NCBI GenBank assembly: GCA_964504135.1
Contig: CAZDCW010000001.1
Span: 90,667-146,829 of the forward strand
DNA: 56,163 nt
Origin: an uncultured Methanosarcinales archaeon
GTDB taxonomy: Archaea; Nanobdellota; Nanobdellia; Woesearchaeales; UBA10216
Direction of reading: 5' to 3'
In this document: in pieces, positions 14,200 through 39,359 of the stretch
Layout: each line of letters starts with the position of its first letter
Position numbering within the stretch: position 1 is the first letter of the stretch
Notes under the pieces: generated by a model
Databases searched by the model: none
What the model was told of the DNA's origin: nothing
The model's input: only the letters and a program-made list of their open reading frames with translations
Made by a program: the position numbers and the translations under genes

Positions 14200-15045
14200 A
14201 TGATAACCACAGAGTTCCTTTCAGGCCTTGACCGCTTCAACCTGGTGATGAGGAAGCGGGTTACTTCAAAGTATGCAGGCTCCAGGCCTAGCCTTATGAC
14301 CGGCAGGGGCGCGCAGATTAAGGATTACAGGCTTTACGCCGCTGGTGATGACTTCAGGCAGATTGACTGGAAGGTCTATGCAAGGACTGATAACCTTTAT
14401 GTGAAGCGCTTTGAGGAGGAAAGGAATCTTACAGTCCACGTAATCCTGGACATCAGCTCCAGCATGGCTTATGGCAGGCCGGGCAAGTATGACTTCGCCG
14501 CCATGCTTGGGATTGGCTTTGCCTACATTGCCATGAGGGGCAATGAGAAGTTCCAGTATGCTGTCTTTTCCGATAATCTTAGGGTTTTCCAGCCGAAGCG
14601 GGGCATGGGCCATCTTGCCGGCATGGTTGAGCTTCTGAATTCCACCAAGCCCTTTGGCAAGTCTGACTTTGCGAAGGCGATGGTGTCTTACAGGAAGATT
14701 CTGGGCAGCCGTTCAATGCTTATAGTTGTTTCAGACTTCCTTTATGACCTTGAGAACATAAAGGATGGGCTGAAGGTGCTTGGCAATGCAGACACAAAGC
14801 TTGTCCAGGTCCTTGACAGGACAGAACGTAATTTAGGTATTGAGGGCGACTTGAAGCTTAAGGATTCTGAGAGCGGCGAAGTCATGAGGACTTATGTCAG
14901 CGCAAAGCTTAAGTCCGACTATCAGCGCCAGCTTGAGCATCACATTTCAGAAATAAGGAAGGCTGCTATCCCGGTTAAGGCATCCTTCAATGTAGTAACG
15001 ACAGATACCCCCATTTTTGACGCTTTTTACCAGATTTTGAGGTGA
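14200..15045 (+). CDS. DUF58 (vWA-like) protein, the usual MoxR partner
   Basis: Family motifs YRLYAAGDDFRQIDWKVYARTDNLYVKRFEEE and the MIDAS-like VILDISSSMAYG. GC returns to about 50% at this gene. Confidence 0.9.
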   Translation: MITTEFLSGLDRFNLVMRKRVTSKYAGSRPSLMTGRGAQIKDYRLYAAGDDFRQIDWKVYARTDNLYVKRFEEERNLTVHVILDISSSMAYGRPGKYDFAAMLGIGFAYIAMRGNEKFQYAVFSDNLRVFQPKRGMGHLAGMVELLNSTKPFGKSDFAKAMVSYRKILGSRSMLIVVSDFLYDLENIKDGLKVLGNADTKLVQVLDRTERNLGIEGDLKLKDSESGEVMRTYVSAKLKSDYQRQLEHHISEIRKAAIPVKASFNVVTTDTPIFDAFYQILR

Positions 15046-15054
15046 GGGGCGGCA
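14998..15054 (+). repeat. direct repeat copy A (authentic 3' end of the DUF58 gene)
   Basis: acgacagat(accccc)atttttgacgctttttaccagattttgaggtgaggggcggca. The 38-nt core 15013-15050 matches 15605-15642 with 2 mismatches. Confidence 0.85.
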
Positions 15055-15374
15055 TGTTTCGCGTCTTTACAACTGATGAATTTGACAAGGATTTGGCCAA
15101 GCTGGACACTTCTGAGCAGGTCAGGGTAAAAAAGATACTGGGGCAGCTTCAGCAGCAGGGAGCTAACGTAGGCAAGCCTCTTTCAGGTTTATCATTTTTT
15201 AGAGAAAAAAAGTTTGATGGCAAACGACTGTATTTTTTGGCTTATAAAGAGTTTTTGATTATTCTGGTAATCGCAATTTCTGGAAAAAAGGCGCAGCAGG
15301 CAACGATAAACAGCATTTTGACCGACTTGATTCAATATCAAAGCCGCATTTTTGACTTGGCAGGAAAAAAGTAA
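15054..15374 (+). CDS. RelE/ParE-superfamily-like toxin (tentative)
   Basis: About 106 aa. FRVFTTDEFDKDLAKLDTSEQVRVKKILGQL...GKPLSGLSFFREKKFDGKRLYFLAY..LIILVIAISGKK follows the RelE/ParE pattern (F.kdlkkL ... gk.L ... R.g.yR..Y). ATG 15054 is preferred over GTG 15042. The gene body is very AT-rich. Confidence 0.5.
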   Translation: MFRVFTTDEFDKDLAKLDTSEQVRVKKILGQLQQQGANVGKPLSGLSFFREKKFDGKRLYFLAYKEFLIILVIAISGKKAQQATINSILTDLIQYQSRIFDLAGKK

Positions 15375-15655: not shown

Positions 15656-15916
15656 TTATTTCTTCCTTCGGATGCGGTGGACAAGCTCTGGAATCTCGGA
15701 TTCCTTCATCCCTGCCAGCCTTGCTGCCTGGTGCAGTGGCCTTGTGATTTCCTCCCAGGACATGGCGCTTGCCTTTTTCATTAGCAGCGTATCCCCTTCC
15801 AAGAGGAACAGCACCTTTTCCCCTTCCTTGAGTTGCATCTTCTCGCGCATCTCTGCAGGTATTGCAATCTGCCCGCGCGCGCTAACAGTTCCAATATCCA
15901 CCGTTTCTGCCACCAT
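15656..15916 (-). CDS. AbrB/MazE/SpoVT-family DNA-binding protein (antitoxin-like)
   Basis: VSARGQIAIPAEMREKMQLKEGEKVLFLLEGDTLLMKK is a typical SpoVT-AbrB swapped-hairpin motif. No adjacent PIN or MazF partner. Confidence 0.75.
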   Translation of the reverse strand: MVAETVDIGTVSARGQIAIPAEMREKMQLKEGEKVLFLLEGDTLLMKKASAMSWEEITRPLHQAARLAGMKESEIPELVHRIRRKK

Positions 15917-15947: not shown

Positions 15948-15998
15948 TTTTCGCCTTGGCTTCATCTGTGCCGTTCACGAAGAGTCAGCCTGCTGCCA
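15948..15998 (+). repeat. intergenic repeat element, copy 1
   Basis: Contains cacgaagagtcagcctgctgcca (15976-15998), which is identical to 29128-29150. The upstream block ttttcgccttggc...ccgttcac is also shared. Confidence 0.8.
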
Positions 15999-16021
15999 AA
16001 AAAGTTAAGTGGCGGTGTCAA

Positions 16022-26446: not shown

Positions 26447-26967
26447 TTCTCCCTCCACACATAGACTATCATCTTTGTCAGGCCGTTCCTGTAGAGGAGC
26501 CTTTCAGACTGGACAAGGTATTTCGCGTTTACTGTTGCGTTGTTGCAGGTTTCTGCGGTTATGTTTGTTATGTTCAGCTTTCCTATCCCGCAGGTCCCGT
26601 TTATGCTTATCACGTTTCCGTTTGGGTCCTGGAAGTGGGCGTAGAAGTCGTTCCTTGTCCCAAGCAGCACTTTCAGCGTGGAATACTCTATTTTTGACGT
26701 TTCCTGGACTTTGGAGTCCATTATTACCCGCTCCCCGTTTGTTATTCCCAGTTTCTGGACGCTGCCCGAGTCCCACGGTGAGGGATACCCTTTTCCTGAG
26801 AGGGAGCTTCCTATGAATTCTGATTCCAGCCTGAGCTCCTCAAGCTGCCTTTCATCTGTGTCAGAGATGTTGGAGCTTACTCTTATGTAGGCGACAAGGG
26901 CTATTGCGAATATTATTGTGCCTATCAGGAGGTCGGTAAACCATGCCTGGCCCTTATTGGCTGACAT
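26443..26967 (-). CDS. pilin-like protein (class III signal peptide)
   Basis: MSANKGQAWFTDLLIGTIIFAIALVAYI has a KGQ cleavage-type motif plus a hydrophobic helix. It overlaps both neighbouring genes. Confidence 0.7.
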   Translation of the reverse strand: MSANKGQAWFTDLLIGTIIFAIALVAYIRVSSNISDTDERQLEELRLESEFIGSSLSGKGYPSPWDSGSVQKLGITNGERVIMDSKVQETSKIEYSTLKVLLGTRNDFYAHFQDPNGNVISINGTCGIGKLNITNITAETCNNATVNAKYLVQSERLLYRNGLTKMIVYVWREK

Positions 26968-27361
26968 AAATCAGCCCTCCTGACTTCCTTAATGTATTCC
27001 TGCCCTTGGCAAGGCTTCCCTGCGTTAGGGGCGCCTTGACAGGGTATTCAACGTCATCACTCGTAAATATTATCGTGCTGCCTATGGTGGTTATGGAGTA
27101 GTCCTCTCCGCTTAGATTGTGGGGCAGTTTTAGCTCCCTTGTGTAGCCTTCTTCAGCCTCTGAGGCTATGAAAAGCTCGCTTCTGGTGTTCGCCGCGAGG
27201 TCCTTTACAAGGAAGGTTTTGCTGTCCTGCTTCAGGTCGCTGAATTGCCTGCCTGCCCCTATTATCAGTACAGCCGCTATGAGCATGGCTGCTCCTGCGG
27301 CATACAGGAACTCGAGGGATAGCTGCGCCTTCATGGTCAGCTTGAGGTTATGTTTACCCTG
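26954..27361 (-). CDS. pilin-like protein (class III signal peptide)
   Basis: The internal start gives MKAQLSLEFLYAAGAAMLIAAVLIIGAG with a Q-x-S-x-E motif. The upstream 133 codons of the track ORF lie in an alternate frame of the preceding pilin gene. Confidence 0.7.
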   Translation of the reverse strand, partial: QGKHNLKLTMKAQLSLEFLYAAGAAMLIAAVLIIGAGRQFSDLKQDSKTFLVKDLAANTRSELFIASEAEEGYTRELKLPHNLSGEDYSITTIGSTIIFTSDDVEYPVKAPLTQGSLAKGRNTLRKSGGLIYVSQ

Positions 27362-27744
27362 TCTCCGATGTTTTCTATCCTTATGTAGGCCAGCCCGCCA
27401 GGGCTGGATGTTATGCTTCCGCTCATGTTGACATCTGCCACTTCTACAACGTCGCTTACTCCTGCGCTTCCCCTTATGGATATGACAAGCTCCCTGCCGG
27501 AGATGCTTACAGACTCCATTCTCTGGGGCATTAGCACTTTTATTGTTGTGACTGAGGGCTTTCCGAGGTAGTACACCTTTTCTGCGTTGTCCACTATCTT
27601 CCTTGCCACGCTTTTTGCCTGCATGCTGTTTATCTGCTCCAGGTTGCTGCTTGACTGGCTGTAGAATATGATTACTGTTGGTATTGTAAGCAGAAGGGCA
27701 AAGCCCACTATCATTATGTATTCTGTGCTTATCTGCGCCTTCAT
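27337..27744 (-). CDS. pilin-like protein (class III signal peptide), first gene of the operon
   Basis: MKAQISTEYIMIVGFALLLTIPTVIIFY with a Q-x-S-x-E motif. A TATA-like box sits about 28 nt upstream. Confidence 0.75.
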   Translation of the reverse strand: MKAQISTEYIMIVGFALLLTIPTVIIFYSQSSSNLEQINSMQAKSVARKIVDNAEKVYYLGKPSVTTIKVLMPQRMESVSISGRELVISIRGSAGVSDVVEVADVNMSGSITSSPGGLAYIRIENIGDRVNITSS

Positions 27745-27766
27745 GGCTTAACCCTCGCATGGCGGC

Positions 27767-27777: not shown

Positions 27778-27884
27778 TGCTGTATGATGGTATTGTTCAG
27801 GGAACGGGTGTTAGGTGATGGCTGTTAAAAAAACGGCTGGCGCGCGGGTAGTAATAGAATCGCCAATTGAATTATTCTTAATTC

Positions 27885-28685
27885 CTAAGGAAAATAGATA
27901 GTGACTGTAATCACATTACCCTGTTGAGCAATACCTGTCTTGTAACTGTCCCTGTCTTCCATCTCGCTAACTATCTTAAGAATCTTCTTGACGTTTTGGT
28001 AACCTATGCCATGTATAGCTAAGAATTTAATGCCATAGTTCTGGTGCGTCTGTATTTTACGCTGGATTAAACCTTCAAGCTCATCTTCTTCCATCTCAGT
28101 ATGGACAAAGATAGCGAAGGGTTGGGTTGTGATGATGGTTTGGAAATATTGTTGATATTCCTCAGGTGTAAAAGTCGGTGATTGGCTCATTTCCTCATAC
28201 GCTTGCTTAAGATAGCCTTCAAAATAATTGGCGCTACACAAGTTGGAAATAATCTTTCCATCTTCGCCATATTTACGCATTATGTCTCTTTTTAAGTCCT
28301 TAATGTCTGAACCTTGTCTGTATACTTCTCTCAGATAAAGTGATGCTTCCAGAATTTTATAATGCCTATCGCTTATCTTGTCTTTGTAGTATGAGAGTGT
28401 TAGTTCAGTGGCACTTGCTTTTCTCTTGATATCTATTACTCGATCTTCGGCTTTCTTTTCTATTATGTTTAAAATATCTTTTCGTTCAAAGCCAGTAAGG
28501 AGAGCCCTCATAACCTTTTCTTTTTCTTCTGAGTCAAGCGCAAGAAGATTAACTTTTGGGACACCATTATCAACGATTGTCTTCCGAGAATCACCTTCCT
28601 TCTTTACAATGATAGTGGGGCTTAGAATCTTTGCGCTACTTAAATCAATTTTTATTATCTGCTTTAAAGCTTCAAGAAAACCCAT
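27885..28685 (-). CDS. hypothetical protein with a C-terminal Smr-like domain (tentative)
   Basis: Low-GC ORF of 266 aa. The C-terminus IFVHTEMEEDELEGLIQRKIQTHQNYGIKFLAIHGIGYQNVKKILKIVSEME...QQGNVITVTIYF follows the Smr layout (LDLHG-like strand, helix, hhhHGxG, helix, terminal G-x-hydrophobic strand). The N-terminal ~190 aa are unrecognised. Confidence 0.5.
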   Translation of the reverse strand: MGFLEALKQIIKIDLSSAKILSPTIIVKKEGDSRKTIVDNGVPKVNLLALDSEEKEKVMRALLTGFERKDILNIIEKKAEDRVIDIKRKASATELTLSYYKDKISDRHYKILEASLYLREVYRQGSDIKDLKRDIMRKYGEDGKIISNLCSANYFEGYLKQAYEEMSQSPTFTPEEYQQYFQTIITTQPFAIFVHTEMEEDELEGLIQRKIQTHQNYGIKFLAIHGIGYQNVKKILKIVSEMEDRDSYKTGIAQQGNVITVTIYFP

Positions 28686-28688
28686 ACG

Positions 28689-28922
28689 CTAAGTTTTTTT
28701 TGAGAAACCTATTAGAGATATCAGATCGTTCTTGATGAATACTAAAGACCCGTTGCTGATACCTGCAAATTCACCAAGTTTTACCTCTTCACCCTCTGGA
28801 GTCAATACTCTTTGGGACGGGTTTGAGACCTCAACTACAAAGCCTTCATCGTCGACAGTCTTAGAGAAAGTCTCTAGAATGTCCTTCGCTACGCTTTCCT
28901 CAAACAAGATAGTTTCAGTCAT
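28689..28922 (-). CDS. small hypothetical protein (77 aa), upstream partner of the Smr-like gene
   Basis: ATG 28922 is preceded by TGGAGTGAAACC (SD-like). The alternative ATG 28982 abuts a TATA-like box. The stop lies 3 nt before the next start. Low GC. Confidence 0.45.
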   Translation of the reverse strand: MTETILFEESVAKDILETFSKTVDDEGFVVEVSNPSQRVLTPEGEEVKLGEFAGISNGSLVFIKNDLISLIGFSKKT

Positions 28923-29075
28923 GGTTTCACTCCAAACCGCATCCGAGCTATTAGGAGGCCTGCCCCTTATTAAGGTTTCCATTATAGATTATAAGGGGCG
29001 TATAAGTCCTCTTCAAGGGTCAATCAGCCGAAGCTTAACATCCAAAGGCTGAACAATACCTTGTATAATAGTAAG

Positions 29076-29150
29076 TTTTCTTTGCAGGCTGGCCCTGCGT
29101 TTTCCGTTCACTTTGTTCGCGTCAGTACACGAAGAGTCAGCCTGCTGCCA
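29076..29150 (+). repeat. intergenic repeat element, copy 2 (with a small internal duplication)
   Basis: ttttctttgcaggc...tccgttcac[tttgttcgcgtcagtacac]gaagagtcagcctgctgcca, in the same orientation as copy 1. Confidence 0.8.
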
Positions 29151-29164
29151 GCAATAATAAGGAG

Positions 29165-29197: not shown

Positions 29198-29692
29198 CTA
29201 AGTAGCCTGCCCTGTGATTGTTCCTGTTGTGCCGTGGGTTACTCCTGTTTCAAGGCTCTTGTAGTTTAACGTTACTTCAGCCTTGAACCTTCCTGAGGAT
29301 ATGGAAGTGCAGGTTATCCTTATTATTCCCTGCTGGTCGTTCTCAAACGTTAGCCCTGCGCCCAGGGCTGCCGGTGTACATCCTACGCCTGTACATGCGG
29401 TTATTGCCGGTGCTGCGCAGTCGTCATCAGCTCCTGTGTCGTCAGTTACTCCTGTAAGGTTTGTCCTATAGCCGTTGTTGTTCCTCACTGCAAAGTCAAA
29501 CCTGTTGTTTGCGTCGCTTATCTCTGCCTTTTCAAGGCAGGAGAAGCCTGCTGGGAACTGGCATGTTTCTGGCAGGTATTTCTGCGGGCTTAGGACTCCG
29601 AAATATGCCAGGGCGGCAATGGCAGCCAGCACTACGAGCAGTGCCCAGCCATAGGTCATCAAGAATTCCATTGCAGCCTGGCCTTTTTTCAT
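29198..29692 (-). CDS. major pilin candidate (archaeal type IV pilin, class III signal peptide)
   Basis: MKKGQAAMEFLMTYGWALLVVLAAIAALAYFGV closely resembles Epd-type pilin N-termini (KGQ then hydrophobic). A strong TATA box (TTTATATATAA) and a GGGTG SD lie upstream, and T-runs follow the stop. Confidence 0.8.
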   Translation of the reverse strand: MKKGQAAMEFLMTYGWALLVVLAAIAALAYFGVLSPQKYLPETCQFPAGFSCLEKAEISDANNRFDFAVRNNNGYRTNLTGVTDDTGADDDCAAPAITACTGVGCTPAALGAGLTFENDQQGIIRITCTSISSGRFKAEVTLNYKSLETGVTHGTTGTITGQAT

Positions 29693-39295: not shown

Positions 39296-39336
39296 TTCTT
39301 TGCGTTAGTTCACGAAGATTTAGCCTTCTACTGTCA
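39296..39336 (+). repeat. intergenic repeat element, copy 3 (degenerate)
   Basis: ttctttgcgttagttcacgaagatttagccttctactgtca shares the ttctttgcg, gttcacgaaga and tagcct.ct blocks with copies 1 and 2. Confidence 0.55.
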
Positions 39337-39359
39337 AGTATAACCGCCAACCACCAATC

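Follow-up and report, generated by a model that had tools for sequence, protein, structure and literature searches.

The Smr proteins (PF01713), represented by SmrB, Cue2/NONU-1 and the C-terminus of MutS2, carry DxH/DLR and HGxG motifs that, on collided ribosomes, are turned towards the mRNA; the DLH of SmrB is catalytic, and MutS2, which has DLR, binds ribosomes without cutting (PMC10897456). Type II toxin–antitoxin systems such as RelBE and HigBA are ribosome-dependent mRNA interferases, encoded in bicistronic operons with the small gene first and the two genes coupled or overlapping. The Alba superfamily (Alba/Sso10b, Pop7/Rpp20, Pop6/Rpp25 and SpoVS) consists of stand-alone dimeric proteins that bind chromatin or RNA. 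Smr, Alba and IF3-C all fall within the IF3-like fold class in SCOP. Here we analyse a two-gene cassette (positions 27885–28982, minus strand) in a 56,163-nt stretch of archaeal DNA, hereafter the window, which was taken from contig CAZDCW010000001.1 (positions 90,667–146,829) of assembly GCA_964504135.1, deposited as an uncultured Methanosarcinales archaeon (GTDB lineage Nanobdellota; Nanobdellia; Woesearchaeales; UBA10216). The cassette lies between a major pilin gene and a minor-pilin operon and encodes an acidic protein of 77 aa and a protein of 266 aa. We propose, with a probability of roughly 40%, that it is a mobile, self-contained operon of the toxin–antitoxin type, with an effector directed at RNA or the ribosome and a small protein that gates it.

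The C-terminal domain of the large protein resembles Smr domains, which are compact folds of ∼ 75–80 residues, in its size, in its predicted β-α-β-α-β(-β) order and in an H-G-x-G loop at the β2/α2 junction, with the spacing found in E. coli SmrB. Unlike Smr proteins, however, it has neither DxH/DLR (a Phe occupies the site of the Asp, and the next residue but one is Ser, His or Asn) nor GGxG, and instead of a MutS ATPase, a KOW or CUE domain or the SmrB hook it is accompanied by a new helical domain and an obligate small partner. Members of the Alba superfamily are the best structural matches to the domain and share with it a glycine-rich loop that opens helix 2, which in SpoVS reads G-x-G-x-x-N as in this family. 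They differ in lacking the conserved His and in not being the C-terminal module of a partnered 266-aa protein, and the 25 Pfam families that recur most among the weak hits of the C-terminal domains include neither Alba nor SpoVS. With type II toxin–antitoxin systems the locus has in common the bicistronic layout described above, a patchy, transfer-driven spread through variable neighbourhoods, AT-richness relative to the host and, in some loci, an inverted repeat in the promoter. In contrast to those systems, the small protein, which is better conserved than its partner, has no ribbon–helix–helix, helix–turn–helix, AbrB or Phd fold, and the large protein is 2–3 times the size of a classical toxin and unrelated to any of them. 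We found no curated family, defence catalogue or paper that covers these proteins; a small partner beside an effector with an Smr-like fold is a familiar architecture, and the parts are new or strongly remodelled.

The cassette and its signals

Read along the minus strand, the locus runs from the major pilin gene through a 215-nt spacer, the small open reading frame (ORF), 3 nt, the 266-aa ORF and a 140-nt spacer to the first minor-pilin-like gene. The large gene (27885–28685, minus strand) belongs to an unannotated family of proteins of ∼ 260–290 aa, and the small gene (28689–28922, minus strand) encodes a 77-aa protein that belongs to no known family. The TAG stop codon of the small gene (28691–28689) is separated from the ATG of the large gene (28685) by the three nucleotides CGT. 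An earlier reading of this DNA from its letters alone (the sequence-only reading) had described two minus-strand ORFs of 77 and 266 aa, 3 nt apart, and these are present where it put them; the peptide strings it quoted from the C-terminus of the large product are all found there as well.

In its longest form the small ORF extends from 28689 to 28982 and would give 97 aa from the first ATG. We rejected this form and regard the 77-aa reading as correct, because all 19 small-protein homologues (76–88 aa) align from the internal Met, because a GGAG (28933–28930) lies 7 nt 5′ of the internal ATG (28922–28920), and because the upstream ATG falls within the TATA-like sequence and has no ribosome-binding site. 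The 20 in-frame codons of the 5′ extension (28923–28982, minus strand), which have no counterpart in the homologues, are probably an untranslated leader.

The promoter region (28962–28999, minus strand) contains the TATA-like sequence CTTATAATCTATAAT at about 28981–28995, in agreement with the earlier proposal that the pair has a TATA-like box of its own. A perfect 9-bp inverted repeat (GCCCCTTAT at 28991–28999 and ATAAGGGGC at 28962–28970) brackets this box and is a candidate operator or leader hairpin. Inverted repeats are similarly placed in ∼ 7 of 32 family loci, and the overall enrichment against shuffled sequences is weak (p = 0.036). Those upstream of the small gene in L025, L016, L019, L020, L027 and L030 are 7–12 bp long with loops of 16–30 nt, lie at about −76 to −18 from the start of the gene, and differ in sequence from locus to locus. 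At the other end of the cassette, 52 nt past the stop codon of the large gene, a T7 run (27827–27833, minus strand) is a likely archaeal oligo-T terminator; the sequence-only reading had noticed this run and had placed it one base off, at 27828–27834. It had also called the cassette low in GC, which our counts confirm: 36.7% at 28201–28260 and 38.7% over 27885–28982, compared with 50% in the 10-kb flanks and 46.3% in the window as a whole.

A conserved gene pair with a patchy distribution

A word-index search returned 16 relatives of the large protein. When its profile was run against 1.84 billion cluster representatives (clusters at 50% identity), 784 matched at E ≤ 1e-3 and 430 at E ≤ 1e-30. 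The best 150 of these 784 matches are mostly full-length proteins of 250–300 aa, with few shorter fragments, and no fusion to an extra domain was seen among them. Searches of Pfam, NCBIfam, PADLOC, PHROGs and PDB sequences with both proteins gave nothing significant. Matches to PdxJ and ACP_PD were sub-threshold and local and were dismissed.

Pairing was scored with hidden Markov models (HMMs) of the small and the large protein, which were run on every ORF in every locus; 35 of the loci are non-redundant. In 34 of the 35, the gene immediately 5′ of the large gene, in the same orientation, is the small one; the remaining locus is truncated by the end of its contig. In nearly all loci the two genes either overlap slightly or stand no more than ∼ 35 nt apart (the ORF call in L035 leaves ∼ 215 nt). 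A reverse look-up from five small-protein homologues gave the same picture, each preceding a family member of 266–285 aa (in Pacearchaeota, its split version). The earlier proposal of a small partner paired with a large protein is thus supported. No third recurrent gene emerged when all neighbours within 8 kb were clustered. The pairwise identities of the two proteins correlate with r = 0.64, about as strongly as those of different domains of the large protein do with one another, and the two proteins have therefore been inherited together.

A scan restricted to one genome per species returned 33 loci. The archaeal carriers are Woesearchaeota, Pacearchaeota, Nanoarchaeota, Micrarchaeota, Aenigmatarchaeota, Methanoregula, a Methanosarcinales metagenome-assembled genome (MAG) and Thermoplasmata, and DPANN archaea account for about half of the genome loci. 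The bacterial carriers are MAGs labelled Patescibacteria, Woesebacteria, Margulisiibacteriota, Gammaproteobacteria, Planctomycetota, Clostridia and Bacteroidetes. The closest relative of the large protein of the window is a metagenome protein (50% identity) and the closest from a named genome is from Woesearchaeota (46–47%); the Methanosarcinales copy is 34% identical.

In Pacearchaeota (L012, 6273–7065; also L013, L014 and L046) the large gene is split into ORFs of 192 and 69 aa, which lie in different frames and 4 nt apart, and the small gene is intact. The split point is just past strand 1 of the C-terminal domain. Because contigs from several samples share this arrangement, it is either a genuine two-piece form of the protein or a fixed frameshift.

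Insertion into the pilus locus and signs of mobility

Relatives of the major pilin were collected from 58 metagenome loci, and those longer than 4 kb were searched with the window proteins by tblastn. L049 and L051, with pilins 45–48% identical to that of the window, are the two related pilus loci that carry both the pilin and the minor pilin in that order on the contig. In both, the pilin is followed after 147–186 nt by a homologue of the 135-aa minor pilin, and in L051 a 174-aa protein, a 905-aa VWA protein and the next gene come after it. The corresponding junction in the window measures 1453 nt and is occupied by the cassette. Neither cassette gene gave a tblastn match in the pilin loci longer than 4 kb, 27 of which match pilus proteins of the window. 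Because related pilus loci run from the major to the minor pilin without it, we conclude that the cassette is an insertion, as the sequence-only reading had supposed, and that the pair is not part of a pilus neighbourhood conserved among relatives. Neither a target-site duplication nor terminal repeats were found at the ends of the cassette.

Wherever more than 2 kb of flanking sequence was available, in 32 loci (L009–L047 and the window), the cassette has a lower GC content than the DNA around it; the difference averages 9 points (Wilcoxon p = 8e-7) and reaches 20 points in L030. Low GC thus characterizes the family and is not a peculiarity of the window. A regression of cassette GC on flank GC has a slope of 0.49. 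These values are compatible with repeated transfer, with a composition rich in Lys, Ile, Asn and Glu, or with both. Taken with the absence of the pair from related pilus loci and its sporadic occurrence across archaeal and bacterial phyla, they support the earlier suggestion that the pair was acquired horizontally.

The same reading had envisaged enrichment in defence islands, and here the survey of 213 neighbours did not bear it out. In a Pfam scan the commonest family was phage integrase (three neighbours), and DDE transposase and nucleotidyltransferase-type genes occurred twice each and a methylase once. In a PADLOC scan of the same neighbours the mad2 model was matched by two members, most other matches were to generic AAA or UvrD proteins, and no recurrent defence family was found beyond mad2. 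Defence-type neighbours occur in only ∼ 3 of 34 loci and comprise one type II restriction endonuclease, one or two methyltransferases and one Mrr. The one clear defence-like setting is that of Methanoculleus, where the pair is flanked by an Mrr-type restriction gene on one side and a gene for a 915-aa N6/N4 methylase on the other. At L107 (3367–6111) it adjoins a DDE transposase and sits between moaC and a conserved archaeal cluster encoding ribosomal L15e, RNase P subunits, proteasome alpha and SBDS, which is a further insertion into a housekeeping region.

The C-terminal domain of the large protein

An AlphaFold2 model of the large protein, built with a 17-sequence alignment, has a mean predicted local distance difference test score (pLDDT) of 83, and most 10-residue blocks from residue 90 onwards exceed 90. 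Conservation figures for the protein refer to 155 family members. The C-terminal domain (aa 189–266; 27888–28121, minus strand) is modelled as β-α-β-α-β-β with an IF3-C-like fold, the strands being 191–194, 221–227, 249–255 and 258–264 and the helices 200–216 and 229–245 (pLDDT ∼ 88–96). An H-G-I-G motif (aa 225–228; 28002–28013, minus strand) lies at the β2/α2 junction, is followed by N231, and is aligned to the Smr HGxG by both hhalign and Pfam. H225 is present in 152 of the 155 members (98%), G226 in 91%, G228 in 94% and N231 in 95%; the best conserved positions of the domain are F193 (100%), Y217, G218, I224, H225, G226, I227, G228, N231 and I235. From the end of strand 1 to HGxG there are 30 residues, the same number as in E. 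coli SmrB.

Foldseek placed Pop7 first among PDB structures (3iab_B; E = 9.5e-3, target-normalized TM 0.64), and the other matches were SpoVS (2eh1), Alba (8xap, 1nfh and 1h0x), Rpp20/25 and IF3-like folds. The Alba-superfamily matches have E values of 0.01–0.2 and a target-normalized TM that ranges from 0.45 to 0.64. All matches of the domain are IF3-like-fold proteins, nucleic-acid binders among them, and, since this fold class is common to Alba and IF3-C, the predicted fold is not specific to Smr.

Comparison with Smr sequences gave a recurrent but sub-threshold signal. The window protein itself does not match Smr, either whole (Pfam, E ≤ 1) or as the isolated domain. Among 60 isolated C-terminal domains of the family, however, five hit Pfam Smr at E ≤ 10, which ties it as the most frequent family; the three hits inspected share one register, and the best reaches 20.1 bits (E = 7e-4) with residues 13–81 on positions 4–77 of the 77 in the profile. 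An Smr HMM scored 26 of the 155 C-terminal domains above 8 bits, against none of 775 shuffled sequences. For profile comparison we used E. coli SmrB and its relatives together with MutS2 and YdaL domains from PDB (4och, 2zqe and 3qd7), a shallow profile with a narrow SmrB set. hhalign matched the 155 C-terminal domains to it with 54% probability and P = 1.3e-4 over 46 columns that span helix 1, strand 2, HGxG and helix 2, with HGxG in register. The Alba superfamily differs in showing no profile similarity, although the control profiles were thin, with one or two sequences each (P = 0.67 for Sso10b Alba and 0.29 for SpoVS). An hhalign comparison of the family with a single SmrB sequence aligned only IHGIG to DLHGL and was set aside. 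Profiles of the C-terminal domain, of the N-terminal and central region and of the small protein found nothing below E = 0.06 among PDB sequences.

Against the Smr assignment, none of the members examined reaches the Pfam Smr gathering threshold of 25.7 bits, and there is no Smr chain among the top 50 Foldseek PDB matches, which are led by Alba, Pop7 and SpoVS. There is no DxH/DLR motif: the aligned residues are F193 (155 of 155), V/I194 and, at position 195, Ser in 51, His in 44 and Asn in 42 of the 155. GGxG before the last strand is missing too: there is no conserved glycine pair (some members have G-N), whereas all Smr sequences aligned here have GG[DHNSTQKA][AGS] at this site. The Smr-like C-terminus of the sequence-only reading thus survives in part. 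The predicted topology, the conserved HGIG and the in-register matches of family members agree with it; the His of ‘VHT’, on which it had also drawn, is the variable residue at position 195, and the nearest structures are those of Alba, Pop7 and SpoVS. These data suggest that the C-terminus is probably a divergent Smr-like, nucleic-acid-binding domain. Its membership of PF01713 is not established, and to judge from the alignment the SmrB- or Cue2-type nuclease site is not conserved in the family.

The helical domain, the N-terminus and the small partner

The central domain (aa 51–188; 28122–28535, minus strand) is predicted to be all-helical, with helices spanning 52–190, and contains the best conserved stretch of the large protein (aa 101–188, 44.5% mean identity). 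Its signature motif, N-L-C-x-A-[GN]-Y-F (aa 148–155; 28221–28244, minus strand), is invariant in alignment A1 and is preceded by K132, G140, R/D142, G143 and I146. N148 and L149 are each conserved in 97% of members, C150 in 83%, Y154 in 99% and F155 in 89%, and the best conserved positions of the domain are K132, G140, R142, G143, I146, N148, L149, C150, A152, G153, Y154 and F155. With a mean identity of 27%, the N-terminal region (aa 1–50; 28536–28685, minus strand) is less conserved than any other part of the protein; it is modelled as short strands after an amphipathic start, with pLDDT of 45–70. The amphipathic helix that opens the protein is itself conserved (M-x-[FW]-[LF]-[DE]-x-L-K, with L7 in ∼ 89% of members). 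No relative of aa 1–188 was found in Pfam or among PDB sequences, by profile searches included, and no Pfam family recurred.

The best viral structural match to the model of the large protein, from BFVD, was a 346-aa uncharacterized Siphoviridae protein (A0A8S5TTG3; E = 2.5e-4), aligned over 315 columns with an rmsd of 19.6 and a TM of 0.2–0.25. Many phage proteins of 85–100 aa also resemble the C-terminal domain in their SpoVS/Alba-like fold.

The small protein is acidic, with a pI of 4.4 in the window and a median of 4.9 across the family. Fourteen columns are invariant among 20 sequences, and the motif reads PSQRVLTPEGEE-x-x-L-x-EFAGI-x-x-GS-x-x-FIK-x-DL-x-SL. Modelled alone by AlphaFold2 it gave a poor structure (pLDDT 61). 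No relatives were found in Pfam, PDB or Foldseek, and the Foldseek matches of so poor a model are meaningless. The sequence-only reading had recognized nothing in the N-terminal ∼ 190 aa of the large protein or in its 77-aa partner, and our family, PDB and profile searches lead to the same conclusion. Residues 24–52 of the small protein resemble the T4 fibritin foldon that is fused to Ebola GP2 constructs in the PDB; the match is not significant (E ∼ 1), and it may hint at a β-hairpin oligomerization element. The poor models of the small protein and of the N-terminus of the large protein are consistent with the two folding on each other, which we infer from the models.

Other features of the window

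The major pilin gene (29198–29692, minus strand) encodes 164 aa with a class III signal-peptide-like start, MKKGQAAMEFLMTYGW, and the first minor-pilin-like gene (27337–27744, minus strand) encodes 135 aa. A 268-aa ORF at 26954–27760, which overlaps the latter out of frame, was set aside as spurious. Related pilus loci frequently have a tandem pair of major-pilin paralogues (L051, 3597–4835; L055, L061, L078 and L083); the window has one. No Rfam families or tRNAs were found in the window.

A repeat with the core GTTCACGAAGAGTCAGCCTGCTGCCA occurs at three intergenic sites (15973–16009, 29125–29161 and 39308–39344) and is not part of the cassette; the second of these is the copy that had been reported upstream of it. 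The copy downstream of the major pilin can pair with 29084–29100 (17 nt, 82% complementary) in a possible hairpin. Possible roles for the repeat are those of a terminator, a regulatory element or a small RNA. Two ORFs adjoin its first copy, one of 110 aa (15042–15374, plus strand) and one of 86 aa with an AbrB/SpoVT-like motif, VSARGQIAIPAEMREKMQLKEGEKV (15656–15916, minus strand). Judged by eye, they look like other genes of the toxin–antitoxin type.

Discussion

We favour a toxin–antitoxin-type operon because of the operon architecture, the translational coupling of the two genes, their patchy distribution and AT-richness, the insertion into a foreign operon and the occasional mobile-element neighbours. 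In such an operon the 266-aa protein would be the effector, composed of a low-confidence N-terminus, the new helical domain and the Smr-like C-terminal domain. The latter would dock the effector on RNA, most plausibly, in the manner of Smr domains, on mRNA or rRNA at the ribosome; it would have kept the putative phosphate-binding HGxG-N loop and lost the catalytic DxH of the SmrB/Cue2 nucleases. The helical domain, with its near-invariant K...G-x-R-G-x-x-I-x-N-L-C-x-A-G-Y-F, would supply the activity or a blocking function. The translationally coupled acidic 77-aa partner would bind and control the effector, either neutralizing or targeting it, and probably folds on it. The module would move between genomes as a unit, and here would have landed between the major pilin and the minor-pilin operon, unrelated to the pilus. 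More tentatively still, the family may represent an undescribed class of mobile two-component systems, common to DPANN archaea, CPR bacteria, methanogens and further uncultured lineages, in which a remodelled Smr-like domain delivers the helical domain with its N-L-C-x-A-G-Y-F motif to RNA or the ribosome and an unusually conserved acidic 77-aa partner acts as the gate.

In addition to the arguments against the Smr assignment given above, several findings weigh against the toxin–antitoxin-type operon. The small protein is better conserved than the large one (mean pairwise identity 46.6% versus 34.6%), which would be unusual for an antitoxin, and has no recognizable DNA-binding fold or family. 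Neither protein matches a PADLOC model, and no relatives were found in IMG/VR, among PLSDB plasmids or among INPHARED phages. The neighbours are heterogeneous and mostly housekeeping genes: purine and folate enzymes, lipid synthesis, ribosomal proteins, tRNA synthetases, EF-Tu, EF1A, CDC48 and RNase P subunits. Many hosts are genome-reduced members of the DPANN archaea or the candidate phyla radiation (CPR), where a pair that is retained could be a useful accessory rather than a selfish element.

The main alternative, which is possible although we would not expect it, is that the pair is such an accessory: a non-toxic RNA or ribosome factor that might, for instance, sense collisions or stalling or serve as an RNA chaperone, with a non-catalytic Smr-like domain and the small protein as an obligate subunit, which benefits its host and spreads by transfer among DPANN, CPR and their hosts. 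The loss of DxH with retention of HGxG matches MutS2-type Smr proteins, which bind ribosomes without cleavage (PMC10897456), and a small protein more conserved than the large one is expected of a subunit with conserved contacts of its own. The absence of defence-gene enrichment, the share of DPANN among the genome loci and the often translation-related neighbours (tRNA synthetases, ribosomal proteins, EF-Tu, EF1A and RNase P) point the same way, but translation genes are common in small genomes anyway. An accessory factor also sits poorly with a distribution that is patchy and not lineage-wide, with a cassette that is AT-richer than its host in every locus measured, with one lineage in which the large gene is split, with copies that adjoin transposase or restriction genes, and with the insertion of the window copy into an unrelated operon that is intact in relatives. 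A dedicated anti-virus (abortive-infection) system, in which infection would free the Smr-like effector from the small protein, is unlikely. It would share the architecture and mobility of the toxin–antitoxin type, and the Methanoculleus pair, flanked by a restriction gene and a large methylase, would suit it, as would the type II restriction enzyme and the one or two methylases found as neighbours. Nevertheless, such neighbours are confined to the ∼ 3 of 34 loci mentioned above, no PADLOC family recurs apart from the two mad2 matches, PADLOC recognizes neither protein, and we found no relevant report of a toxin or defence module of the Smr type in the literature.

We think it very improbable that the pair is the remnant of a virus or plasmid with a function in the replication of that element or in anti-defence. 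An AT-rich insert with no evident host function, integrase or transposase neighbours in a few loci and the small phage proteins whose SpoVS/Alba-like fold resembles the C-terminal domain could be read in this way, yet no relative was found in the viral, phage and plasmid collections and the insert consists of two genes only, with no other element genes or terminal repeats. An accessory function in the surrounding pilus has its position alone to recommend it, on the same strand between the major pilin (29198–29692) and the minor-pilin operon (from 27744). It is effectively refuted, because the cassette is absent from related pilus loci: in L049 and L051 the pilin leads directly to the minor pilin, and no pilin locus longer than 4 kb has the pair. 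Moreover, pilus genes are not recurrent neighbours in the other 34 loci, and the pair has promoter-like and terminator-like signals of its own and a distinct GC content.

For the archaeon studied here, the analysis implies that a pilus locus may hold an unrelated mobile insert, and that these two genes should not be annotated as pilus components. Beyond this locus, the family amounts to ∼ 800 clusters at 50% identity that carry no Pfam, NCBIfam, PADLOC or PHROGs annotation and are concentrated in lineages known almost only from metagenomes. A strict two-gene unit with clear mobility signatures and four or five invariant residues makes a compact experimental target, and the module offers a way to learn whether an Smr-like fold has come to serve as a toxin or a translation regulator outside MutS2, SmrB and Cue2. 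If the more tentative idea of an undescribed class of two-component systems is correct, its mechanism would be a new form of toxin–antitoxin action or abortive infection, and archaea would have their first translation effector of the Smr type.

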